Shown piece by piece: positions 659 to 62,682 of a stretch of 64,000 nucleotides of DNA. The number at the start of each line of letters is the position of its first letter. Position 1 is the stretch's first letter. The position numbers and the translations under genes were made by a program. Source of the stretch: Escherichia coli (GTDB lineage Bacteria > Pseudomonadota > Gammaproteobacteria > Enterobacterales > Enterobacteriaceae); the NCBI RefSeq assembly GCF_009931435.1, contig NZ_CP043415.1; one strand, given 5' to 3'. The notes below the pieces were generated by a model. It made no database searches and had not been told where the DNA came from. It saw only the letters and a program-made list of their open reading frames with translations.

Positions 659-1180
659 TTATTTTACTCTTGATAACTTCTTGTTTTTGACGTAACTATT
701 GATTGCATCAATAACACCAACAAATTGATATCTACCGATATCTAATTGAATCAAGAACGCCATAATAACCGTCACTAAAATTGCGCCAAAACCGTATATA
801 ATCCCTCCACCTAAAAAAGACCATAAAAATATAACCCCCATATACACAATGAAATACACTTTAAGTTTTGATGATATAACCCTCATTACGGATGATGTCT
901 TTAGGAATTCTTCCGGCAGAGAGAAATATAACATTCTAATCCTTGCCACAATAAACAGAATAATAAGTCCAAGCCATCCTCCGGCTAACACAGCAGTGAG
1001 TGTTTCACTTGTCTTTTGTGTTATTAGAAATGACATTAGCAAGGGACAAAAAATCATCCACCCCATGATGATAAGCCCGGGTTTTAATCCCTGCCATAGT
1101 GACGGAATTCTAATATCTCCTGAGTCAATATGTTTCTTTAAAACTTCCAACTCACTACTGATAATTTGTTGTGTAATCAT
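659..1180 (-). CDS. traS: TraS entry-exclusion inner-membrane protein
   Basis: 173-aa hydrophobic ORF between traG and traT, the canonical traS position; assignment by synteny. Confidence 0.7.
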   Translation of the reverse strand: MITQQIISSELEVLKKHIDSGDIRIPSLWQGLKPGLIIMGWMIFCPLLMSFLITQKTSETLTAVLAGGWLGLIILFIVARIRMLYFSLPEEFLKTSSVMRVISSKLKVYFIVYMGVIFLWSFLGGGIIYGFGAILVTVIMAFLIQLDIGRYQFVGVIDAINSYVKNKKLSRVK

Positions 1181-1212
1181 GGTCTCTCCATACCCTACCC
1201 AACATGTTATGA

Positions 1213-8631: not shown

Positions 8632-10440
8632 TTACTGTCCTGCCTGTTTCAGCTGGTCAGCAATCTGCTCTTTCACTTTCTGCGTCAGAACGCCACTGTC
8701 CGGGATTTTCTGGTTATTCATCAGGTCTTCGTAGAAGTTAGTGAAATCCAGTCTGTTGAACTGAATTTTCTGCAGCTCATCAACCGTAATCCCCCGACAG
8801 TCAGGATGCTTCGCACTACCAAAACTGATACGCAACTGACCGTTGCGCCCCTGCTGCTGGACTATCTGCGCCAGCTTCGAATCAAACTGACAGTAGCTGC
8901 GTTTTTTCTCCAGACAGACACCCAGCACTTTCTTCGAACAGAACTCCCCGACGCTGACGGTCAGTTTGTTTGATTTTGCTTTAGCCAGGGCCTTTTCATC
9001 ACTGCTGCATTTGGCCAGCCCGATATCCTGTCCCCAGCCGCTGTCCTTACAGCAGTTGCTGTATCCGGCTGCAGCCTTCTTACAAAATTTCGCCTGACCG
9101 GTGAAAGCACGGACATCCACCCCGTTCAGCGCCGCAACATCCTTACCTGCTGCGGCCAGTGCCGCCAGCTGAGAAACGGCTTCGGCAAAATCATTACTCT
9201 GCCCGCTCTGAGCCTTATCGCATTCGCCATCGAGACAGAAGACGTCTCCCCCACAGACCATCACTTTCCCGGATGTTTTTGACTCACAGGAGTACGTGGC
9301 ATATTCATGCAGACAGGCACCTTCTTCGGAGTAAAAGGCACACTGGTGTGACACCAGGGTACAGGCAGGATTGTCGGTGTAGGTCTGACAGGTTCCCTTG
9401 TCTGCTGACTGCGTGACATACGTGTCCCGGTATGCCCAGCAGCTCTGGTACATGCTGTATGACTGACCGTCTTTCACCAGCGTCCTGTTCCCGCCAGCCT
9501 CCGTACATTCTGTTTTTGTCAGTTTCCCCAGCTCCTTGCTGAACGGGCAGCTTTCAGACCAGACAACATACGGGGTGTACGAGGCTTTTTTTACCCTGAC
9601 AACCAGACGCAGCTTCATTGCCGTATGACGTTTGAATTTTGTATTCCCGACCCGGACGGGGTGAGATGACGTAAAAGCCACACCGGCAGTCAGTGTTTTC
9701 TGTACTGGTGTAAATGAGGCATCTGCTGAGTATTTGGCATTCCAGCTCAGTGGGGTTCCCAGTACTGTAATTGTCATAGGTACACTCTTCTGCAGGTAAG
9801 TACGACTCCAGCTGTAATGCGCATCGACAATTTCACCGGTAACGGGAGAGGTAATGGAGACAACATACTGACCATTCACTTCACGTGCAGGTAGCTGACT
9901 CATTTCATACTCCAGCGTCCGGGTTTCCCATGTGGTACTCCCCTGCAGCTCCATACGGGCAGTTCGTGTGCAGTACTGCTCCACCTGTAAATCCCGCTCA
10001 CAGGTGTAATTCGTGTATTCACTCCTGCTAATCTCCTGCGCACTGCACTGCTGCCCGGTGTTTCCCACAATGCTGTCAGCCCGGTTCACCACATCCCTGC
10101 CGGTCTGGATAAACGGTGCATCCGGTGAAAGAATGTCTTTCGGCTTGTTCATGAATGACTCTGTAATGGTTTTTCCGGTTTCACCGGTCGCCCATTCCGT
10201 GGTGCCGTCATTTTTCAGGCCGCCATCCCCGCCGGCAGTCACGCCACCGTAATATTTTGTCTCGTCCGGATTCGCGTTATAGCCGGGGATACTCTCCTGT
10301 GGCTTAAAGCCCTGAATACTGCTGCTTCCCTGCCCTTTGATCTGGTGAGCAAAATCAGAACCGGCCCGGTAATCACTGTTGCTGTCAGCCTGTGCCATGC
10401 CGGCAACCAGAGCCAGTATCAGAGGTAAAATACGTTTCAT
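8632..10440 (-). CDS. traN: TraN outer-membrane mating-pair stabilisation protein
   Basis: 602 aa, cysteine-rich C-terminal half, signal peptide; position matches F traN. Confidence 0.9.
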   Translation of the reverse strand: MKRILPLILALVAGMAQADSNSDYRAGSDFAHQIKGQGSSSIQGFKPQESIPGYNANPDETKYYGGVTAGGDGGLKNDGTTEWATGETGKTITESFMNKPKDILSPDAPFIQTGRDVVNRADSIVGNTGQQCSAQEISRSEYTNYTCERDLQVEQYCTRTARMELQGSTTWETRTLEYEMSQLPAREVNGQYVVSITSPVTGEIVDAHYSWSRTYLQKSVPMTITVLGTPLSWNAKYSADASFTPVQKTLTAGVAFTSSHPVRVGNTKFKRHTAMKLRLVVRVKKASYTPYVVWSESCPFSKELGKLTKTECTEAGGNRTLVKDGQSYSMYQSCWAYRDTYVTQSADKGTCQTYTDNPACTLVSHQCAFYSEEGACLHEYATYSCESKTSGKVMVCGGDVFCLDGECDKAQSGQSNDFAEAVSQLAALAAAGKDVAALNGVDVRAFTGQAKFCKKAAAGYSNCCKDSGWGQDIGLAKCSSDEKALAKAKSNKLTVSVGEFCSKKVLGVCLEKKRSYCQFDSKLAQIVQQQGRNGQLRISFGSAKHPDCRGITVDELQKIQFNRLDFTNFYEDLMNNQKIPDSGVLTQKVKEQIADQLKQAGQ

Positions 10441-11078
10441 TTCCCGGAATCTCCTTTCCCTGCCAGTAAATCATGAGCCACCTGCCGGCAGTCACCCGTG
10501 GCGGCCACTTTCTCCAGCGCCTGGCCGACCCGCAGGTTTCCCCGGATGATGTCGTATCCCTGACTGCAGAACACCACCAGTGCCGGTACAGTGCGAATGC
10601 CGTACTGTGAAAACAGCGTCGGGTCGATCTGAACACCATCAGTCGCGCCGTCTTTCACCAGGGACAACACAGCTTCAGCGGTGGTCTTCAGGTCATTGTT
10701 CACCATGCCCCGCAGTGTGGCCGGAATACCGTAGTGCCGGGTTTCGCCCAGCATTCGTTTCAGCCCCTCTTCGGGAATGGAAAACGACACAAAATACAGA
10801 GCACCCTGCCGGGGTTTCCCGTCCTGCGAAGCCTGCTGTTTACGAACCAGCTCATCCAGGAAATGGTTATCTGAACGCTGAAGGGGGTTTTCCAGCACCT
10901 GTTTCTCCGCCCAGGCTTTCAGCTGATGGTCAGGTTTTTCACGCAGTTGTCTGCTTAAATTTTCCTGCTGCTTCAGGAACTGGCGGTTTTCAGGAGTGTT
11001 CACGTTTTCTGACGCCATAACCGCCCCGTTCAGCATCATCAGCAGTGCTGCCAGAGATTTCATACTCAGCTTCATCAT
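10437..11078 (-). CDS. trbC: TrbC periplasmic pilus assembly protein
   Basis: 213 aa with signal peptide; sits between traU and traN. Confidence 0.85.
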   Translation of the reverse strand: MMKLSMKSLAALLMMLNGAVMASENVNTPENRQFLKQQENLSRQLREKPDHQLKAWAEKQVLENPLQRSDNHFLDELVRKQQASQDGKPRQGALYFVSFSIPEEGLKRMLGETRHYGIPATLRGMVNNDLKTTAEAVLSLVKDGATDGVQIDPTLFSQYGIRTVPALVVFCSQGYDIIRGNLRVGQALEKVAATGDCRQVAHDLLAGKGDSGK

Positions 11079-21685: not shown

Positions 21686-22333
21686 CTATCTTCCCAATAT
21701 TTCTTTTACTTTAGCATATAAAGGAAGTATCTTTTCCGTTCTAATCATTTCATCCAACCAGAGATCTCTAGAACTAAATCCATGTCGTTTAAATAATTTC
21801 ATGGTTTTCTTCTTTGATTTAGACACAGTGATGTTCATCTTTGCTGATGAATAATGATGGCTAAACCCTATCAGATATGGCTCAATGCCTACATATTCAT
21901 CAGATAGTACAATTAATTCATTGGTGTATTTAGACACAACAAACGATGACAGATTATCATTTGCTACCCAAATAAATCTCCAGATAAAGAAATAGCCGCA
22001 TGGTGTGATAACACTTTCTATGATCACACTCCATAACATATTATTAAGTAATATGTCATTATTACAATTTACACCATAAACTGAAGAGCATGATTCAATC
22101 TCTGCTCTGGATAACTGTAATTTACATTCCAACGTTAAACTATCAAACCATTCATCACATGAATTAAATGACGATCTGATAAGTTTTTCAAAGCGGTTAT
22201 TTTCCTGAATAAAAGAACCATCCTCGAAGCGGACACATACTGGATATTTTAAAAACGAAATAGCCTCTCCAAGACTATGAGGGAAATGCAATTGACTGAT
22301 GAGTGCTCTTTCTCTACGATCCATCGCACACAT
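21686..22333 (-). CDS. traJ: TraJ transfer activator
   Basis: ORF between traM and traY; start placed at [11 protein letters not shown], preceded by GAGGAGG. ORF track extends to 22411 via an upstream TTG. Confidence 0.8.
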
Positions 22334-22412
22334 AGGAACCTCCTCTAAGGATTCTATGGACAGTCGATGCAGGGAGTGGCTGCTCCCTGCATCGGCGATT
22401 TTCAGTTTCAAT
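22330..22412 (+). ncRNA. finP: FinP antisense RNA, complementary to the traJ leader/RBS
   Basis: Opposite the traJ start: perfect hairpin CGATGCAGGGAG-TGGCTG-CTCCCTGCATCG (22365-22394) followed by a T-rich tract, a stem-loop plus terminator architecture. Ends approximate. Confidence 0.55.
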
Positions 22413-22523
22413 TTTTAACGTGGCATTAACCACATAATCAATATACTAATTATTCTGATTATTGTCATCAGTTTGAACCATAAAAAACCATGATATTTGA
22501 ACAAAGTCAAAATTTATTTCACT

Positions 22524-25384: not shown

Positions 25385-26005
25385 CTCTCTCTGGTTTTCA
25401 GCCCCCATCATCTGTTGAGTTTCGGGAGCCGCGGTTTTGACGTTTTGCGGGGACCTGCCTTTTGTTCCCTCCGGTATTCACCATCACCTGTTTGAGAACC
25501 TTCGCCGCAAGGGGCATCACTGCCACGGCCGGAAACGACTGTCCGGGGGCAGACCGCAAAAGTTTTTGCCTGCTTTTGGGCAAAAACTTTTGCGGGATGT
25601 GCATTTCACCCCTGGACTGGCGGAGACGGTTGTGGCTGTCTTTGCCCCCGGCGACAGGGGCTTAAACAGGTGAATGGCACCGGACACAACAACGGGCAGG
25701 GACCCGCCGCAACGACGTGAAGCGCGGTTTGCGAAACGGAGTTGCCCCTTACATCCCGGCGGTCTTTTGCCGGGATGTAAGGAGCGCAGGCCACGGCGCG
25801 ACCGGAACGGTCGCTGCAAGCCCGGGGTTTTCACGCATCGGACCGTAGCGACAGCCCGAAACCGCGCCAGCGGGTTTGGCGGAGACTGACAGGTGCGCCA
25901 GCAGCTGCCTGTCGGAGTCGGGCCTGACGACCGGATGCCGCCAGGCAGCCGGGAGCCGAAGGTGCGCCCGGCAGACAGGACAACACTGCAGTAGTCAGAA
26001 TCAGA
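25385..26005 (-). repeat. Leading-region repeat copy A (Frpo/ssi-like structured element)
   Basis: Near-identical to 32760-33408 and related to 36112-36600; internal hairpins GCAAAAGTTTTTGCC..GGCAAAAACTTTTGC, CATCCCGGC..GCCGGGATG, GCGACCG..CGGTCGC. Confidence 0.7.
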
Positions 26006-26280
26006 GCAGGAAGAAAAAGAGAATAATCACAGGGAAGGTGATGTGATTTCTGACAGGCCATAACCAGAGAAGGCGGGGGAAAAGAACGGGCGCCGCAGGC
26101 GCACGTTCATCCCCGTTCCTGAAGGGAAACGACCTTCCTGAAGTCAGGTTGTTCATGCCCGTACAACATCAGCAAGGAGAAAGGGGCTACCGGCGAACCA
26201 GCAGCCCCTTTATAAAGGCGCTTCAGTAGTCAGACCAGCATCAGTCCTGAAAAGGCGGGCCTGCGCCCGCCTCCAGGTTG

Positions 26281-26439
26281 CTACTTACCGGATTCGTAAG
26301 CCATGAAAGCCGCCACCTCCCTGTGTCCGTCTCTGTAACGAATCTCGCACAGCGATTTTCGTGTCAGATAAGTGAATATCAACAGTGTGAGACACACGAT
26401 CAACACACACCAGACAAGGGAACTTCGTGGTAGTTTCAT
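26281..26439 (-). CDS. hok: Hok-family toxin (flmA/hok), 52 aa
   Basis: Reverse-complement translates to [52 protein letters not shown]; below the 60-aa cutoff of the ORF track. Confidence 0.9.
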
Positions 26440-26497
26440 GGCCTTCTTCTCCTTGCGCAAAGCGCGGTAAGAGGCTATCCTGATGTGGACTAGACAT
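26285..26497 (-). CDS. mok: Mok (modulation of killing) overlapping reading frame
   Basis: 70-aa ORF overlapping hok in another frame, as in hok/mok/sok loci. Confidence 0.65.
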
Positions 26498-26535
26498 AGG
26501 GATGCCTCGTGGTGGTTAATGAAAATTAACTTACT
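26465..26535 (+). ncRNA. sok: Sok-like antisense RNA (approximate placement)
   Basis: Placed by the known architecture of hok/sok loci, antisense to the mok start region; not verified by structure. Confidence 0.35.
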
Positions 26536-26718
26536 ACGGGGCTATCTTCTTTCTGCCACACAACACGGCAACAAACCACCTTCACGTCATGAGGCAGAAA
26601 GCCTCAAGCGCCGGGCACATCATAGCCCATATACCTGCACGCTGACCACACTCACTTTCCCTGAAAATAATCCACTCATTCAGACCGTTCACGGGAAATC
26701 CGTGTGATTGTTGCCGCA

Positions 26719-27923: not shown

Positions 27924-31844
<3,921 letters not shown>

Positions 31845-31906
31845 TAGTACCTCCCAAAACGGTAATAATGATTGTCTGCCGGACGTGTCCCCGTCCGGCA
31901 CCTCTC

Positions 31907-32742
<836 letters not shown>

Positions 32743-32759
32743 GATGTGCCTCCTTCTGT

Positions 32760-33408
32760 TGATGTTTTCAGCCCCCATCATCTTTTGAGTTTCGGGAGCC
32801 GCGGTTTTGACGTTTTGCGGGGACCTGCCTTTTGTTCCCTCCGGTATTCACCATCACCTTTTTGAGAACCTTCGCCGCAAGGGGCATCACTGCCACGGAC
32901 GGAAACGACTGTCCGGGGGCAGACCGCAAAAGTTTTTGCCTGCTTTTGGGCAAAAACTTTTGCGGGATGTGCATTTCACCCCTGGACTGGCGGAGACGGT
33001 TGTGGCTGTCTTTGCCCCCGGCGACAGGGGCTTAAACAGGTGAATGGCACCGGACAGAACAACGGGCAGGGACCCGCCGCAACGACGTGAAGCGCGGTTT
33101 GCGAAACGGCGTTGCCCCTTACATCCCGGCGGCCTTTTGCCGGGATGCCAGGAGCGCAGGCCACGGCGCGACAGAGGCGGCGCGACCGGAACGGTCGCTG
33201 CAAGCCCGGGGTTTTCACGCATCGGACCGTAGCGACAGCCCGAAACCGCGCCAGCGGGTTCGGCGGAGACTGGCAGGTGCGCCAGCAGCTGCCTGTCGGA
33301 GTCGGGCCTGACGACCGGATGCCGCCAGGCAGCCGGGAGCCGAAGGTGCGCCCGGCAGACAGGACAACACTGCAGTAGTCAGAATCAGAGCAGCAGGAAA
33401 AAGAAGAA
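32760..33408 (-). repeat. Leading-region repeat copy B (Frpo/ssi-like), immediately upstream of ssb
   Basis: Near-identical to copy A over ~600 bp, with the same hairpins. Confidence 0.7.
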
Positions 33409-33462
33409 CAGTAGCAGTAGCAGTAGCAGTAGCAGTAGCAGTAGCAGTAGCAGTAGCAGTAG
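33409..33462. repeat. Hexanucleotide microsatellite (CAGTAG)x9
   Basis: Nine perfect tandem CAGTAG units, present only at the distal edge of repeat copy B; copy A has no expansion at the same place. Confidence 0.95.
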
Positions 33463-33626
33463 CAGGAACAACAACATCATCAGTAACAGACAAATGACAG
33501 GCATGAAGAAACAGAAGCCCCCATCAGAACGTCCGCGTAATGAAAGGGGCGGCGCGTGAGCGCGGCCCCTTTCAGCGCCACCGGCGCGGGCAGACAGGCA
33601 TTTATCCTCCCGCCGGCCCTGTGTCA

Positions 33627-34190
33627 TCAGGCACGCAGACGAATAATCATCGTCGGGACATCGGTATAAGCAAACGTGCCGCGCGGCAGCTCCTCGCGGA
33701 CGTCAGAAAACGGTAACAGCTTCTCCTGCTGGCGTGGTCCGTTGAGACAGACGGCGACCAGCACGCCACCCGGACGCAACAGGGAAAAGGCCCGCAGGAT
33801 ATGCCGGATATCCTGCCCGTGGCTGAACGGCGGATTCATGATAACCCGGCTGTAATACTGCACTGGCTGCCATTCCATGAAGTCGCCACACTGAACCCTG
33901 ACACCGTTAAAATTTTCCCGCAGATACCGGACCAGCCCGCTGTTGATTTCCACCGCATCACACATGGCCCCCGGCGCGGTATCCCGAATCGCCCGCAGTA
34001 TGGCCCCGGTGCCGGCAGAGGGTTCCAGAATGTGATCACGGTTGCTGATCTCCGCCAGCATCACCAGGCGATCACAGACCGGGGCAGGAGTCACAAAAAG
34101 CTGAGATTCAGCCCGGATTTCAGCAACCGGCGCGGCGTTATCCAGCCTTGCGCGCATCAGCCGGATACGTTCTCTTAACTGACTGTGCAT
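33627..34190 (-). CDS. Putative SAM-dependent DNA adenine methyltransferase (small orphan MTase)
   Basis: 187 aa with motif I-like LEPSAGTGA and motif IV-like NPPF; no adjacent restriction gene. Confidence 0.65.
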   Translation of the reverse strand: MHSQLRERIRLMRARLDNAAPVAEIRAESQLFVTPAPVCDRLVMLAEISNRDHILEPSAGTGAILRAIRDTAPGAMCDAVEINSGLVRYLRENFNGVRVQCGDFMEWQPVQYYSRVIMNPPFSHGQDIRHILRAFSLLRPGGVLVAVCLNGPRQQEKLLPFSDVREELPRGTFAYTDVPTMIIRLRA

Positions 34191-34237: not shown

Positions 34238-35599
34238 TTATTTCTGTGGGATTTCCGTGATTTTCATGTCGGTGATATACACATTCACCAGGCGGAAATT
34301 ATTGTCCATTGTGCGGCGGTACCGGTATGCCCCGTGGTCTTCTGCTTCTGCCACACTGCGCACGGCCTTACAGTCCCGGGGCAGGGCGGCCCACTGTGCC
34401 TTTGTCATTTCCCGGAAACCTTCCCCCGGATAGTTGACTACCGGCGGACGCTTCGCGGCCTGACTGGCGACGGCAGCCTCTTCTGCCGATGGTGCTTTGT
34501 AGTCCGTGATGCGATCGGGCGTCACTTTCATCGTGCCGCTGTACCCGAGAAAACTGTAATTTGGCGTTGTGACTGAACTCACCGCCCCGTTGCTTTTGTT
34601 CACACGGATGATGGTCAGCCACTCGCCCCGGCTGAAAACCTGTCCGCCCGGCTCAAAATCCTGTGTCCGGGTAACCACGCCGCCGCTTTCGTCCAGCATG
34701 GCACGCTCATAGATCAGGCGGTTCTGATAGTGGTTAACCCAGCGTTGTTGATGCTGAATCTGCCGTTCATGACAGCGGATCGCAATTTCGCGGGCCTGCT
34801 CCGTGGTGATGATGTCATCATCCAGGGCCGACCATAACGATCGACTTCCTTCATACTGGCTTTTTTCTGCCGGGCGCGGATACGTATCCAGCGGGAAACA
34901 GGCGCTGATATGGTCATGACTGCTGATGAGTTTTGCCATATTCAGATCCAGCGATTCAGCCCGCCACATCGTCAGATATTTCTGCGACTGCGCGATGGTC
35001 TTTTCAGCCTTGCGCAAATCAGCTTCGATTTTTTTGATACGACGCCAGCGAACGTCCGGACGTTCTTTATACTTCGCGTGAAGCAGTGCCGACCGCGCCC
35101 GCTCTTCCCAGTATTCCGCACGTTCAAAGAGCATCACGGCTCGTTTCATGCCGTTTTCAATACGCTGCGCATCACGACGGGCGCGGCGTTCGCTGTGATG
35201 CCCCACAAGAATGGGCTGACCGGGCGGGATCATCGCGGCCAGTCTTTCCACTTCATCAAGTGCCTGTGCGGATTCACTGGCCCGCTTTCCGCTGTATCCG
35301 GTAAACCGCTCCGCCCGTGCTTCCTGACGTTCAGCGAGCGTGCTGTCTTCATCCTCAATCTCTCCGGCAAGTGAGAGGAGCACGTCTTCCCGGCCCGGTG
35401 TCCAGGCTGGCGCGACAAACAGCGCCTGTTTTGGTGCCCAGCGGAAACCGGCATCATGCACTTTTTTATACGTCTCCGGGTCAAGACGTGACACGGCATA
35501 CAGGCGCAGTTTGTTGTCATCCGGTGAGTAGGTCGCGCGGTACATCTGCACAGGGCTGGCGGCTTCCGGGGCGGTCATGGTGATTGCTGCTGATGTCAT
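34238..35599 (-). CDS. Conserved leading-region protein of unknown function, 453 aa
   Basis: Long charged ORF co-transcribed in orientation with the downstream MTase; no recognisable catalytic motif. Confidence 0.6.
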   Translation of the reverse strand: MTSAAITMTAPEAASPVQMYRATYSPDDNKLRLYAVSRLDPETYKKVHDAGFRWAPKQALFVAPAWTPGREDVLLSLAGEIEDEDSTLAERQEARAERFTGYSGKRASESAQALDEVERLAAMIPPGQPILVGHHSERRARRDAQRIENGMKRAVMLFERAEYWEERARSALLHAKYKERPDVRWRRIKKIEADLRKAEKTIAQSQKYLTMWRAESLDLNMAKLISSHDHISACFPLDTYPRPAEKSQYEGSRSLWSALDDDIITTEQAREIAIRCHERQIQHQQRWVNHYQNRLIYERAMLDESGGVVTRTQDFEPGGQVFSRGEWLTIIRVNKSNGAVSSVTTPNYSFLGYSGTMKVTPDRITDYKAPSAEEAAVASQAAKRPPVVNYPGEGFREMTKAQWAALPRDCKAVRSVAEAEDHGAYRYRRTMDNNFRLVNVYITDMKITEIPQK

Positions 35600-35650: not shown

Positions 35651-35881
35651 TCAGTTAAAAGCGCGTTTCAGTTCGAGTGTGCGGAGCACCTGCCCGAAGG
35701 CCGTGTTTTTCATGGCGGGGATGTGTACACCACGCCCCCGGTGAAAACTCCGGGCAATGTGTCGCCCGAAGGCTTTCAGCACGGGGTCAATTTCCGGCGC
35801 GGGGATGTCTTCGCGTCTGAAACGGGGATGACGGCGGGGCTTTACAGCCGCTGCGGAAGGTGAAACAATACTTACTGTCAT
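35651..35881 (-). CDS. Hypothetical small protein
   Basis: 76-aa ORF, first ORF downstream of repeat copy C; weak support. Confidence 0.3.
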   Translation of the reverse strand: MTVSIVSPSAAAVKPRRHPRFRREDIPAPEIDPVLKAFGRHIARSFHRGRGVHIPAMKNTAFGQVLRTLELKRAFN

Positions 35882-36111
35882 AATTTAGCCTCTTATGACG
35901 TTAATTAATGAAACCGTAAAGACTGTTCGTGCAGTCTCTGCGGTGTGGATTAAGCAGGTCCCTGACCTGCTTTTTTCATATCTGCGTCTGACGTTCTCCG
36001 GTGTTTTCCTCCTTCTGTTCCTGCGTTCTCATTACCTGCCAGCCGGATGACTGACAGAACACATAAATGCGTATTGCCGGAGCCTGAAATAAATCCTGAT
36101 TTTTAAAGAAC

Positions 36112-36600
36112 ATCACCCGTTGAGTTTCGGGAGCCGCGGTTTTGACGTTTCGCGGGAACCTGCTGCTGTATTCCCTGTGGTATGAACTTCACCCGTTTGA
36201 GAACCTTCGCCGCAAGGGGCATCACTGCCACGGCCTGACGCACCTGTCCTGGGCAGAACGCAAAATTTTTTACCGGGTTTTGGGTAAAAAATTTTGTGGG
36301 CTGTTCATTTACCCTGGACAGTCAGTGCGGCAGGTTGTGGCTGTATGAGCCCCCGGCGACAGGGACTCATACGGGTGTGTGGCATCCGGCAGGCAATGAG
36401 CAGGGACCCGCCGCAATGACGGAGAGCGCGTGCGCGAAACGGCGTTGCGCCTCACATCCCGGCGGCCTTTTGCCGGGATGCCAGGAGCACAGGCCACGGC
36501 GCGACAAGGGTGGCGCGACCGTTCCGGTCGCTGCAAGCCCGGGGTTTTGCGGCGTCAGGGATGGAAGCCCGCCAGGGCGGAGACAGCTCCGCTGGCTCCG
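36112..36600 (-). repeat. Leading-region repeat copy C (diverged Frpo/ssi-like)
   Basis: Shares TTGAGTTTCGGGAGCCGCGGTTTTGACG, TTGAGAACCTTCGCCGCAAGGGGCATCACTGCCACGG and CCCGGCGGCCTTTTGCCGGGATGCCAGGAGC blocks with copies A and B. Confidence 0.65.
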
Positions 36601-36801
36601 TTCACGACAGCCCGCCCCGCAAGCGGGACGCCCGGGAAAGCCATAAACAGGAGAGCAACGAAAAGAAGAAGAGGAAGAAGAACAATAACAAGCACGGTAA
36701 CCACAGAAAAATAACATCAGAAAAAAACATTCCGGACACATCACAAACGGGAAGGGTAACGGGCGACGCGTCAGCGTGGCCCGCTTCCCTTCCGGCAGGC
36801 G

Positions 36802-41586: not shown

Positions 41587-41594
41587 ACGATCGG

Positions 41595-43995
41595 GTAGCA
41601 GTGATGCATTACTGCATCACCGCCCCCTAAGAACCGTACGTGCCAGTTTCCCGGCATACGGCTCAAGCCTTTCTAAGCCCACTCTCATGAGCCGGTTTCA
41701 CTACATGTATACCTTTCGCATGAACAAGTGTGTGACACATCGGATGCAGCATAATCAAATTGGAGAGGCAGTTGCTCCCTCCATCGACTCGCCGTATGAT
41801 GTGATGAACCTGCCACTGGGAATCAGATGTAATCCTCTCATCACATATGGGGCATCGGCCCCGCTGCTCAAACCAGATTTGAATGAGCTTTTTCCGTCCT
41901 TGCAGTTTGTGCCGCATTTTGTCTGCACAACGCTCCTCAAAGTACATCTCCCATTGAGGATCGAACGGATTAGCTGCAATTTTAATCGGTTTAAACCGGT
42001 TGATAGGCGTATCGATTGCTTTCCTCAGATTTGCATACTGAGGCTTACCGTTGGCAAGGAGTTCTCCGGTAGCCGTGGAGAAAGACCAGTTTCGGGCACC
42101 TTGTTGATGGAAATATCTTTTCCGAATCCACTTCTTTCCCTTATTGGGATGACGCCGAACAGCCCAACGCCATAAAGCCAGCCAGATCTCATTGTCAACT
42201 TTGTTAAATGCGACCTTGGCCACAATGTGTTGATGGTAAGCCGCCCACCCTTTGATCATTGGGTTCAGCATGCGGATCAACGTAAGCTGATCCATAGCTT
42301 TGTTGCCTTTGATTACAGCGCGTATTTTCTTTAAAAAGGAACTGACATTGGCTTTAGAGGGTTTGATCAGCATCTTACCGCCATATTTGCGAATGTTCTG
42401 TCCAAGAAAATCAAATCCTTCCTCGATATGTGTGATTTTCGTCTTTTCCGGAGAAAGCATTAATCCTCTTTCAGCCATAAACCGCCTGACGACGGGTAAT
42501 ACCTGAGACTCAAGAAGTTCTTTTGACTCTCCAGTGATAATAAAATCATCAGCATATCTCACATAGTTAACTTTCGGGTTAACCAATCGTCCCTTGACTG
42601 TTCTCTTTTTAAACTCCGAAGCAAGAAGCGCCTCCAGTCCATCCAGAGCAATGTTAGCCAGTACAGGAGAAATTATTCCCCCCTGAGGAGTTCCTGAATT
42701 TACAGGGAATAACTGCCCCTTTTCCCTGTAACCCGCTTTAAGCCACTTTGTCAGGATTTGTCTGTCTGTTGAGGTGTTATCGATTAGCCATTGATGAGAT
42801 ATATTGTCAAAGCATCCCCGTATATCCCCCTCAAGCACCCATTCAGCGGATGTTTTCTGCGCAAGAACACAGAAGCACTGTGCTATCGCATCTGCAGTAG
42901 ACCTTCCAGTCCGAAAGCCGAAGGATCTCTGGTCAGCAGTGACTTCAGCAACGGGCTCAAGAGCCAGCAAATACAACGCCTGCATCGCCCGATCCTTCAT
43001 AGTGGGTATCCCAAGGGGACGAGACTTCCCATTTGACTTAGGTATATAAACCCGCTTAAGTGGCTGTGGTTTGTAACCACGCCGTTTCAGCAGGTTAATA
43101 GCAAGAAATTTAACCTCCGGGGAAGACCATGTCTGACCATCAACCCCAGGAGTACGTTTCCCGCTATTCTCTGTAACTCGTCTGACAGCAACTGCTCTGC
43201 CACTAAACGAGTGAGTCAGTATCCATTGCAAGGATTTGACCTTGCCATGTTTACCTTCTCGTGTTGCCTTTACGATACGCGCTTGCAGTCTCCGCACTTC
43301 CCGATAGCACTGACGCCAGTTGATACTGTGCCAGGAGTCACCGTTAAGTAAGGACGCACCTTTACAGGTTGTAGCCTGCTCAGTCATCTGCTTTTCCTTT
43401 CTGGAAGATTACTCAAACTCTCTCGTAATGAAAGACCCAGTGGAAGTCTGCCCGCTTTCGCGTAGGGTAATGTTGCCGGGCTCAACCCTTATCCGGTCCA
43501 TTACAGACTGGCATTCGCTTTTTCCACCTTCTTTTACCCGCACCGCCAACAGTATCCCTTGCGGTTAACCTGCCTCACGAGGCAGCGATACGGGCTTACC
43601 ATGTTCCACCTGAATAACAACAGTAGGTTAGACTCTGCTCACAACACCGGTGGTTTATTGTCCGTGTACCCCTAGCAAACAGAGGAGTAACCAACCACAT
43701 ACCTTTTGGTTCAAGCCTGTCAGCATCTTTGGCTTGTTCTGGTTAACGACGCTTCAGCAGTTCACATATGTTAGTCATGCTACCGAGCCTAGACCTCCTC
43801 CGCCTGATGCTGGCAGATTACATGTAACCTCACGGTTTCATGCGATCCGAAGATCCGGTTTCATTGTCCTGACAGCTTCACACCCCACCGTTACCAGTGA
43901 CGCATGTGTCAGTAGGCTACTGATGACGGAACATCAGGTTCCCTGACGGAATCGAACTCCGCTGGAACAATTATTCAGGCGACTTCATGTCGCAC
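41595..43995 (-). mobile_element. Group II intron (~2.4 kb) with intron-encoded RT-maturase-HNH protein
   Basis: Minus-strand 5' end GTGCGACATG at 43995; domain V GAGCCGTATGCCGGGAAACTGGCACGTACGGTTC at 41664-41631 overlapping the ORF stop; domain VI-like hairpin follows. 3' boundary approximate. Confidence 0.8.
41663..43387 (-). CDS. Group II intron-encoded protein (reverse transcriptase / maturase / HNH endonuclease)
   Basis: 574 aa; RT motif YVRYADDFII, maturase X region, C-terminal HNH block (CPICDERI…HHIIRRVDGGSNCLSNLIMLHPMCHTLVH). Confidence 0.92.
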   Translation of the reverse strand: MTEQATTCKGASLLNGDSWHSINWRQCYREVRRLQARIVKATREGKHGKVKSLQWILTHSFSGRAVAVRRVTENSGKRTPGVDGQTWSSPEVKFLAINLLKRRGYKPQPLKRVYIPKSNGKSRPLGIPTMKDRAMQALYLLALEPVAEVTADQRSFGFRTGRSTADAIAQCFCVLAQKTSAEWVLEGDIRGCFDNISHQWLIDNTSTDRQILTKWLKAGYREKGQLFPVNSGTPQGGIISPVLANIALDGLEALLASEFKKRTVKGRLVNPKVNYVRYADDFIITGESKELLESQVLPVVRRFMAERGLMLSPEKTKITHIEEGFDFLGQNIRKYGGKMLIKPSKANVSSFLKKIRAVIKGNKAMDQLTLIRMLNPMIKGWAAYHQHIVAKVAFNKVDNEIWLALWRWAVRRHPNKGKKWIRKRYFHQQGARNWSFSTATGELLANGKPQYANLRKAIDTPINRFKPIKIAANPFDPQWEMYFEERCADKMRHKLQGRKKLIQIWFEQRGRCPICDERITSDSQWQVHHIIRRVDGGSNCLSNLIMLHPMCHTLVHAKGIHVVKPAHESGLRKA

Positions 43996-50593: not shown

Positions 50594-50920
50594 ATGACTA
50601 AAAATACTCGTTTTTCCCCCGAAGTCCGTCAACGCGCAGTTCGTATGGTTCTGGAAAGTCAGGGCGAATATGACTCACAGTGGGCGGCAATTTGTTCCAT
50701 TGCCCCAAAGATTGGCTGTACGCCGGAGACTCTGCGTGTCTGGGTTCGCCAGCATGAGCGGGATACCGGGGGCGGTGATGGTGGGCTCACCAGCGCTGAA
50801 CGTCAGCGTCTGAAAGAGCTGGAACGTGAAAATCGTGAACTGCGCTGCAGTAACGATATCCTTCGCCAGGCTTCCGCTTATTTTGCGAAGGCGGAGTTCG
50901 ACCGCCTCTGGAAAAAATGA
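50594..50920 (+). CDS. IS3-family transposase OrfA
   Basis: 108 aa, HTH and leucine zipper, [41 protein letters not shown]…. Confidence 0.9.
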
Positions 50921-51807
50921 TGCCACTGCTGGATAAGCTGCGTGAGCAGTACGGGGTCAGACCGGTATGCAGCGAACTGCATATTGCCCCGTCAACGTAT
51001 TACCATTGTCAGCAACAGCGACATCATCCGGATAAACGCAGTGCCCGTGCGCAGCACGATGACTGGCTGAAGAAAGAGATACAGCGCGTATACGATGAAA
51101 ATCACCAGGTATACGGTGTGCGTAAAGTCTGGCGTCAGTTGTTACGGGAAGGTATCAGAGTGGCCAGATGCACTGTGGCACGTCTCATGGCAGTTATGGG
51201 ACTTGCCGGTGTTCTCCGGGGTAAAAAGGTCCGCACTACCGTCAGCCGGAAAGCCGTTGCCGCATGCGACCGCGTAAACCGTCAGTTCGTGGCAGAACGT
51301 CCAGACCAGTTGTGGGTGGCTGATTTTACCTGGGTAAGCACATGGCAGGGCTTCGTTTATGTGGCGTTCATCATTGATGTGTTCGCCGGATACATCGTGG
51401 GATGGCAGGTCTCATCATCCATGGAAACAACATTCGTGCTGGATGCACTGGAGCAGGCGTTGTGGGCCCGTCGGCCGTCCGGCACAATCCATCACAGTGA
51501 TAAAGGTTCTCAGTATGTATCGCTGGCCTACACGCAGCGGCTTAAGGAAGCCGGATTACTGGCATCAACAGGGAGTACTGGCGACTCGTATGACAACGCG
51601 ATGGCGGAGAGCATCAATGGTCTTTACAAAGCGGAGGTAATACACCGTAAGAGCTGGAAAAACCGGACAGAAGTGGAACTGGCCACACTAACGTGGGTGG
51701 ACTGGTATAACAATCGACGATTGCTGGGAAGGCTGGGCCATACTCCTCCGGCAGAAGCAGAAAAAGCTTATTATGCTTCCATCGGAAACAATGATCTGGC
51801 AGCCTGA
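50917..51807 (+). CDS. IS3-family transposase OrfB (DDE integrase domain)
   Basis: 296 aa, overlaps the orfA 3' end. Confidence 0.9.
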
Positions 51808-61642: not shown

Positions 61643-62682
61643 CTGAAAGAGCTGGAGCGAGAAAATCGTGAACTGCGCCGCAGTAACGATATCCTTCGCC
61701 AGGCTTCCGCTTATTTTGCGAAGGCGGAGTTCGACCGCCTCTGGAAAAAATGATGCCACTGCTGGATAAGCTGCGTGAGCAGTACGGGGTCAGACCGGTA
61801 TGCAGCGAACTGCATATTGCCCCGTCAACGTATTACCATTGTCAGCAACAGCGACATCATCCGGATAAACGCAGTGCCCGTGCGCAGCACGATGACTGGC
61901 TGAAGAAAGAGATACAGCGCGTATACGATGAAAATCACCAGGTATACGGTGTGCGTAAAGTCTGGCGTCAGTTGTTACGGGAAGGTATCAGAGTGGCCAG
62001 ATGCACTGTGGCACGTCTCATGGCAGTTATGGGACTTGCCGGTGTTCTCCGGGGTAAAAAGGTCCGCACTACCGTCAGCCGGAAAGCCGTTGCCGCATGC
62101 GACCGCGTAAACCGTCAGTTCGTGGCAGAACGTCCAGACCAGTTGTGGGTGGCTGATTTTACCTGGGTAAGCACATGGCAGGGCTTCGTTTATGTGGCGT
62201 TCATCATTGATGTGTTCGCCGGATACATCGTGGGATGGCAGGTCTCATCATCCATGGAAACAACATTCGTGCTGGATGCACTGGAGCAGGCGTTGTGGGC
62301 CCGTCGGCCGTCCGGCACAATCCATCACAGTGATAAAGGTTCTCAGTATGTATCGCTGGCCTACACGCAGCGGCTTAAGGAAGCCGGATTACTGGCATCA
62401 ACAGGAAGTACAGGCGACTCGTATGACAACGCGATGGCGGAGAGCATCAATGGTCTTTACAAAGCGGAGGTAATACACCGTAAGAGCTGGAAAAACCGTG
62501 CAGAAGTGGAACTGGCCACACTAACGTGGGTGGACTGGTATAACAATCGACGATTGCTGGAAAGGCTGGGCCATACTCCTCCGGCAGAAGCAGAAAAAGC
62601 TTATTATGCTTCCATCGGAAATAATGATCTGGCAGCCTGAGTTCACAGATAAAATACTCTCCAGGAAACCCGGGGCGGTTCA
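61643..62682 (+). mobile_element. IS629/IS1203-like element, 5'-truncated copy (about IS positions 271-1310)
   Basis: Near-identical to the complete copy from the orfA 3' part through the right inverted repeat; left inverted repeat and orfA 5' end absent. Confidence 0.85.
61750..62640 (+). CDS. IS3-family transposase OrfB (second copy)
   Basis: 296 aa, differs from copy 1 at about 3 residues. Confidence 0.85.

Follow-up and report, generated by a model that had tools for sequence, protein, structure and literature searches.

The array of CAGTAG units studied here lies in the leading region of a conjugative Escherichia coli plasmid, a short distance upstream of the plasmid ssb gene and at the border of a repeated module that aligns with the single-stranded DNA promoters of the F plasmid. 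The question raised by this locus is whether the array does anything for the plasmid, be it as coding sequence, as an adjustable part of the neighbouring promoter or as a barrier to transcription, or whether it simply gains and loses units with no appreciable consequence. A prior question is whether the array is new at all.

Sequence and Position of the Array

Nine CAGTAG units followed by CAG are read directly from the sequence at positions 33409–33465 of the window, which is the whole stretch of 64,000 nucleotides analysed here. An earlier reading of this DNA, made from the sequence only, had described a perfect (CAGTAG)x9 tract at 33409–33462, present in just one copy (copy B) of a repeat. 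Both Tandem Repeats Finder and a window-wide scan for the unit agree with that description. The program reports, for 33409–33465, the consensus CAGTAG with a period of 6, 9.5 copies, 100% matches, no indels and a score of 114, the highest of any array in the 64-kb window, and the scan of both strands found no second run of two or more CAGTAG units elsewhere in the window. Chance cannot be the origin of a perfect hexamer array of 57 nt in 64 kb. Many complete plasmid records have this array at the corresponding position, which excludes an assembly artefact. To our knowledge, the + strand CAGTAG unit contains no DnaG primase (CTG) sites and no Dam, Dcm or M.EcoGIX motifs through which the T-strand array might have had a role.

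Matches to Rfam families place the array on the transfer map of the plasmid. The traJ 5′ UTR and FinP are found at 22327–22435 and sok at 26437–26613, and from these positions oriT is located near 23 kb, with the leading region extending toward higher coordinates. All the leading genes present here lie on the − strand; given this direction of transfer, the + strand is thus the transferred strand and their template. Leading genes can be transcribed from the first-transferred strand, and the layout of the window agrees with this (PMC11541004). Along the − strand, the order is DUF3560 gene, SAM methyltransferase gene, GC-rich terminator-like inverted repeat, array, repeated module of ~600 nt, ssb, DUF905 gene and ParB-like gene. 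The main features around the array are the following:

35599..34238, − strand: DUF3560 gene
33627..34190, − strand: class I SAM-dependent methyltransferase gene, transcriptionally upstream of the array (ORF; PGAP in relatives; weak NCBIfam matches to the Erm/KsgA methyltransferase family)
33546..33569, − strand: imperfect GC-rich inverted repeat followed by TTTCATT, terminator-like, lying shortly after the methyltransferase gene and before the array in the direction of transcription (read from the sequence)
33409..33465, no strand assigned: perfect (CAGTAG)9.5 microsatellite, almost certainly orthologous to the MLVA locus VNTR-37 / O157-37 (Tandem Repeats Finder; sequence; pO157 array with the same right flank and exact PulseNet primer matches on either side)
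32203..32781, − strand: plasmid ssb gene (NCBIfam PRK13732, E = 3.5e-113, residues 14–192; PGAP in relatives)

The inverted repeat at 33546–33569 was not called by a consensus terminator scan, and no RNA family was found in Rfam at or beside the array at the gathering threshold. The true start of ssb is likely to be at MAVRGINKV, about position 32742. The array thus lies ~0.63–0.67 kb from the start of ssb, close to the ~0.65 kb given in the sequence-only reading, which was also right to place it at the edge of copy B, since the homology between copies B and C stops exactly at the array. At the other end of this gene order, an IS21-family element (28795–30596 and 30606–31901; IstA, E = 5e-96; IstB, E = 2e-140) adjoins the ParB-like leading gene. 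The ParB-like ORF has 431 aa here vs ~650 aa in relatives, which points to its truncation by the element.

Identity with a Plasmid-Borne Typing Locus

The array is already known and is an established typing marker, which the sequence-only reading did not recognize. It is close to certain that it is the plasmid-borne hexanucleotide VNTR in use for the typing of E. coli O157 under the names VNTR-37 and O157-37. This locus belongs to the set that PulseNet types by MLVA in E. coli O157 (Keys et al., 2005; Hyytia-Trees et al., 2006; as cited in PMC3321953 and PMC3768571), and the sequences of its primers are printed in PMC3321953. According to Table 1 of that paper, locus 37 has a 6-bp repeat, is located on pO157 (footnote), and shows 3–17 repeats, 11 alleles and a diversity index of 0.82; the statistics come from 202 German isolates, and the locus is scored as ‘inside ORF L7083’ (PMC3321953). 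In pO157 (locus L010), both PulseNet VNTR-37 primers match exactly, at 1150–1186 (+) and 1307–1333 (−), and their sites lie immediately on either side of a 7-unit CAGTAG array with the same right flank as the window. It is this exact bracketing, together with the common flank, that identifies the array with VNTR-37 / O157-37.

In the window itself the primer pair is incomplete. The forward site is present as follows:

33527..33553, − strand: PulseNet VNTR-37 forward-primer site, with 2 mismatches in this plasmid

The reverse-primer site was not found in the window because this plasmid carries the other left-flank allele, and the standard VNTR-37 PCR would probably yield a null allele from it. 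For the window locus, orthology is accordingly deduced from array, right flank and gene order. In this sense, the window and pO157 have in common the CAGTAG unit, perfect units in variable number, the right flank including the forward-primer site, and the same neighbours, with the SAM methyltransferase gene on one side and ssb on the other. They differ in the left flank, which in the window is another allele of the Frpo module, and in the replicon, which here is an IncF-type plasmid with a tra region (traJ 5′ UTR, FinP and antisense-to-traG matches) and not pO157. A 6-bp unit, copy-number polymorphism and location on a pO157-type or F-like plasmid, all features of VNTR-37, are found in the window array. 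A literature query with the repeat sequence itself returned only unrelated eukaryotic matches.

Unit Number in Related Plasmids

The array region is matched by at least 5,000 plasmid records. Among the complete E. coli genomes, 1,549 of 5,426 contain places that cover 80% or more of a 271-nt query with the array at its centre, and 9401 of the 9499 matching places are on plasmids. The other 98 of the 9,499 are on chromosomes, which suggests that F-like leading regions have been integrated in some strains.

Units were read directly in 15 sequences, the window and 14 relatives. Every array is perfect, and the numbers found are 1, 2, 5–10, 12, 14 and 18. Loci L001–L007 have 8, 10, 14, 1, 2, 6 and 5 units, respectively; L002 is a Salmonella plasmid typed IncC that carries a MOBF/MPF_F transfer system, and the others are E. 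coli plasmids of IncF type. Two Klebsiella plasmids have 7 and 9 units, pO157 of strain Xuzhou21 has 7, an Enterobacter plasmid 5, an IncK2/Z plasmid 2, and two further E. coli plasmids 18 and 12. Judging from match lengths in evenly spaced samples of the hits, the spread from 1 to 18 units is broad, with no dominant allele. The right flank is conserved among the sequences read, and the left flank occurs as two alleles of the module. Two minor differences adjoin the array: at 33478–33486 the relatives carry CAACATCATCAG or CAACATCAG, that is, (ATC)2 vs (ATC)1, and pO157 has CATGAAC directly after the array, where CAGGAAC otherwise stands. A 5.3-kb query for near-identical plasmids differing only in unit number gave a best identity of 99.4%, its match lengths being distorted by joined pieces from the multi-copy Frpo modules.

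Changes in unit number have also been seen as they occur. During serial passage, the orthologous pO157 locus showed both gains and losses of units, two mutations in all, at a reported rate of 8.5e-5 per generation (PMC3777172). The array had been proposed from its sequence to be prone to slippage, and both lines of evidence bear this out: relatives range from 1 to 18 units, and the pO157 locus gains and loses units on passage (PMC3777172). Comparison across related plasmids thus reveals different numbers and not one number common to all of them.

Coding Potential

Several ORFs have been annotated across the array. It might encode a small hydrophobic protein with a variable poly-Leu segment, translationally coupled to the methyltransferase through TGATG, or form part of another annotated ORF of the (Thr-Ala)n or poly-Ser type. 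The latter crosses the array on the + strand in the pO157 annotation, and the other two are found in the window:

33385..33627, − strand: poly-Leu ORF (CTA CTG), its ATG overlapping the methyltransferase stop as TGATG; PGAP hypothetical protein; probably not a gene
33215..33493, − strand: (Thr-Ala)n ORF, overlapping; probably spurious

The stop/start overlap TGATG is indeed present in the window, and both PGAP and the EDL933 annotation put the VNTR within hypothetical ORFs. In none of the alleles read is the poly-Leu frame interrupted between the vicinity of the methyltransferase stop and a point just beyond the array; however, the three − strand frames of the CAGTAG unit all lack stop codons anyway. 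The three ORFs annotated across the array are, moreover, mutually exclusive. Between alleles, the start codon of the poly-Leu ORF is either changed or missing (L004 has Lys at the Met position), the upstream part of the ORF changes frame between alleles (MTQGRREDK... vs MPVCPRREKT...), and the ORF reads through the GC-rich terminator-like hairpin. A hydrophobic run that varies by 34 residues is hard to square with a functional protein, and the use of CTA, a rare Leu codon in E. coli, also counts against coding. None of the array-spanning ORFs has an NCBIfam match. A coding function is, on balance, highly improbable, and the ORFs called over the array in three frames/strands are probably spurious, as judged from their sequences.

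Two further candidates were considered at this site. A gene for a small hydrophobic protein of the kind exemplified by type I toxins is improbable, given that start, frame and length are not conserved and that NCBIfam gave no family match. No antisense RNA was found by Rfam at the array site.

The Frpo-Like Modules and Their Tails

The module that separates the array from ssb occurs three times in the window, with copies starting near 25406 (C), 32776 (B) and 36111 (A). Copies A and B had been recognized from the sequence; the third, at ~25406, had been missed. The copies align with Frpo1 (upstream of ygeA) and Frpo2 (upstream of ssb) of the F plasmid, both of which are needed for the early expression of downstream leading genes in transconjugants (PMC9849209). 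The elements of copy B and the two other copies are as follows:

32789..33104, + strand (T strand): long imperfect hairpin of the Frpo / ssi class-1 type, core of copy B, upstream of ssb (DNA fold; alignment with F Frpo1 and Frpo2)
33105..33370 (end approximate), + strand: second GC-rich structured domain, between hairpin and tail (mean pairing probability 0.66; D1 family, 92% identity between copies)
33340..33520, + strand (transferred): T-poor, purine-/A-rich low-complexity tail holding the array and the (ATC)1-2 polymorphism (composition; predicted unpaired)
36111..36760, + strand: copy A, Frpo-like module with an (AAG/GAG)-rich T-poor tail at about 36630–36760 (Tandem Repeats Finder rows at 36663–36682 and 36704–36730)
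25406..26010, + strand: copy C, Frpo1-equivalent module, whose left flank is common with copy B up to the array start

The structure of copy B is predicted to be strong, the fold of + strand DNA from 32782 to 33530 having a minimum free energy of −186.6 kcal/mol (z = −8.9 vs shuffles). The tail at 33340–33520 is of a different nature: its composition is A 0.40, C 0.22, G 0.28 and T 0.10, vs a T content of 0.24 for the window. All three modules end in this way on the T strand, with a T content of 10% in the tail of copy B, 7% in that of copy A and 14% in that of copy C (window, 24%). The edge of copy A had been described as unrelated to that of copy B. It is true that no CAGTAG units are found there, but the edge is a homologous, diverged purine-rich and T-poor tract of the (GAA/GAG)n type. 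This A-type tail measures 46 nt in the window and in L001 vs 73 nt in F, which has extra GAAGAG-like units, so the tails are length-variable in general. A low-complexity tail seems to be general to these modules, with (CAGTAG)n as the form most capable of expansion.

The F plasmid offers a natural comparison. No run of two or more CAGTAG units was found in F between 48000 and 68000, where the modules end in other purine-rich tails. In this stretch (NC_002483.1, 48000–68000; L014), the locus at 9650–10650 is without the DUF3560 and SAM methyltransferase genes and without a CAGTAG array upstream of ssb. The F Frpo2 is a mosaic, copy-B-like at its ssb-proximal end and copy-A-like in its upper hairpin and tail. 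This mosaic is consistent with recombination between module copies, which would have deleted the intervening genes. In addition, an ORF of 68 aa lies wholly within the Frpo hairpin on the − strand of the window (32768–32974) and is annotated by PGAP as a hypothetical protein in many relatives (e.g., WP_000275853.1); it may be a leader peptide or else a false ORF call.

Relation to the Single-Stranded DNA Promoter

The position of the array next to the ssb-driving module led the sequence-only reading to propose that changes in unit number could affect the structure or spacing of the promoter element. The array would then be an adjustable spacer or structural part, through which the number of units acts on the folding, the spacing or the activity of the Frpo-type promoter and thereby on the early expression of ssb after transfer. 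The array does lie at the distal edge of the repeated module that holds the promoter hairpin; it is on the transferred strand, on the side where single-stranded DNA emerges next to the base of the hairpin, and it mutates fast. It stands, however, ~300 nt past the hairpin (32789–33104), with the second structured domain in between. Single-stranded DNA promoters of the Frpo / ssi class-1 type, known from F and ColIb-P9 (Masai and Arai, 1997; PMC9849209; PMC12672017), have a long imperfect hairpin by which the −35 and −10 boxes are reconstituted on the T strand. The module next to the array can be aligned with Frpo1 and Frpo2 of F and folds into such a hairpin ahead of ssb, but the array lies outside this hairpin and is not predicted to pair with the module.

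The predicted folds point in the same direction. These are thermodynamic models of naked DNA, which ignore SSB and RNA polymerase. In the DNA fold of the + strand, the array is unpaired in the centroid structure. When the T strand was folded with 0, 1, 2, 5, 9, 14, 17 or 25 units, all 213 of the 213 pairs of the module minimum free energy structure were unchanged, and the pairing probabilities remained constant over 0–25 units for the hairpin (0.73) and for domain 2 (0.66), with 0.16–0.32 for the array itself. The F plasmid Frpo2 drives ssb even though it has no array (PMC9849209), and a natural range of 1 to 18 units argues against constrained spacing. Taken together, a predicted fold that does not change from 0 to 25 units, a position outside the hairpin, a working F Frpo2 with no array and natural alleles of 1–18 units speak against a modulation of promoter structure or spacing by unit number, and such a role is unlikely in the extreme, if not quite as improbable as coding. 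A regulatory function of the array is not supported by these models, which give no sign of it, although a small effect on expression would still be compatible with them.

The classical routes of phase variation do not apply either. The array resembles the simple-sequence contingency loci of Haemophilus, Neisseria and Campylobacter in being perfect, in having a short unit and in its high slippage rate. In contrast to them, its unit is a multiple of three, it is not placed in the spacer of a −35/−10 pair, and it affects no verified gene. A unit of 6 nt, being a multiple of three, cannot produce a frameshift, so reading frames are kept. A consensus scan found no sigma-70-like promoter in 32700–33700. 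The array is therefore not a phase-variation switch.

A Probable Slippage-Prone Spacer of the Leading Region

The array is most likely a neutral, slippage-prone microsatellite, VNTR-37, in an intergenic spacer of the conjugative leading region. According to this explanation, it would occupy a non-coding spacer bounded on one side by the terminator-like hairpin that follows the SAM methyltransferase gene and on the other by the Frpo-type module that drives ssb. Units would be gained and lost by slipped-strand mispairing during DNA synthesis. Length changes would have no appreciable consequence, so the unit number would drift freely, from 1 to 18 in the plasmids read. Both the neutrality and the slippage mechanism are what we infer from these patterns. 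The array itself would be an expansion-prone stretch of the T-poor, purine-rich, unstructured tail with which every Frpo module in the window ends. As a speculation, complementary-strand synthesis may stall at the structured module that lies ahead of the tail, and this stalling would favour slippage behind the polymerase. In F, a different ssDNA-promoter stem-loop (ssp2) is reported to stall the synthesis of the complementary strand (preprint, bioRxiv 10.64898/2026.01.09.698686).

It is important to note that an array or T-poor tail is kept at this place beside two divergent left-flank alleles and in several plasmid types, so that the presence of a tract of this sort may be under some constraint. 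The tail can also be read as functional in two ways. One possibility, which we regard as a long shot, is that the T-poor unstructured tail is a functional part of class-1 ssDNA-promoter modules and that, upstream of ssb, it takes the expandable form (CAGTAG)n; the tail would act as an SSB-coated run-up where complementary-strand synthesis stalls or slips ahead of the structured domain. If this were true, the length of the tail would set the time for which the promoter remains single-stranded and active following transfer, and the VNTR would be a heritable, fast-evolving dial on early leading-gene expression.

The other reading places the function in the RNA. The pyrimidine-rich transcript of the tail, including (CUACUG)n, might serve as a transcription insulator, for instance by Rho loading, which would block read-through from the upstream operon and keep ssb and psiB silent once the DNA is double-stranded. 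The tail does come after a weak terminator-like hairpin, its − strand is rich in C+U, poor in G and predicted to be unstructured, and the leading genes are shut off after conversion to double-stranded DNA (PMC9849209). Nonetheless, the case is purely compositional, the array itself lacks UC and CC dinucleotides, and its length varies from 6 to about 110 nt. The insulator is accordingly given hardly any weight as an explanation.

Implications for Typing and for Promoter Studies

The array matters little as a discovery, since it is an established typing marker and most likely neutral. Its distribution is of more practical interest. VNTR-37 is not specific to O157: the same array occurs within the leading regions of numerous F-like plasmids from E. 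coli, Klebsiella, Salmonella and Enterobacter, and the left-flank allele of the window alone is present in about 1,550 of 5,426 complete E. coli genomes. In view of this spread over many F-like plasmids, MLVA at VNTR-37 reports plasmid and not chromosomal history. The array also lies beside an ssDNA promoter of experimental importance and provides a natural allelic series of 1–18 units with which effects of unstructured flanking DNA on Frpo activity or strand conversion can be studied.

Other Elements of the Window

Three further observations concern the surroundings of the locus. An antisense RNA match, AS-pc01 (‘Antisense to pHK01_035’; Rfam, 98.9 bits), is found on the + strand at 35876–35975, opposite the region just upstream of the DUF3560 gene. 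Beyond the leading region, a group II intron occupies 41590–43938 on the − strand, with Rfam matches to domains D1–D4 and to the catalytic domain. Finally, two ALIL pseudoknots lie on the + strand at 50875–50991 and 61708–61824, ~10.8 kb apart and with 117.8 bits each; the pair suggests that one IS element is present twice, perhaps as the flanks of a composite transposon.
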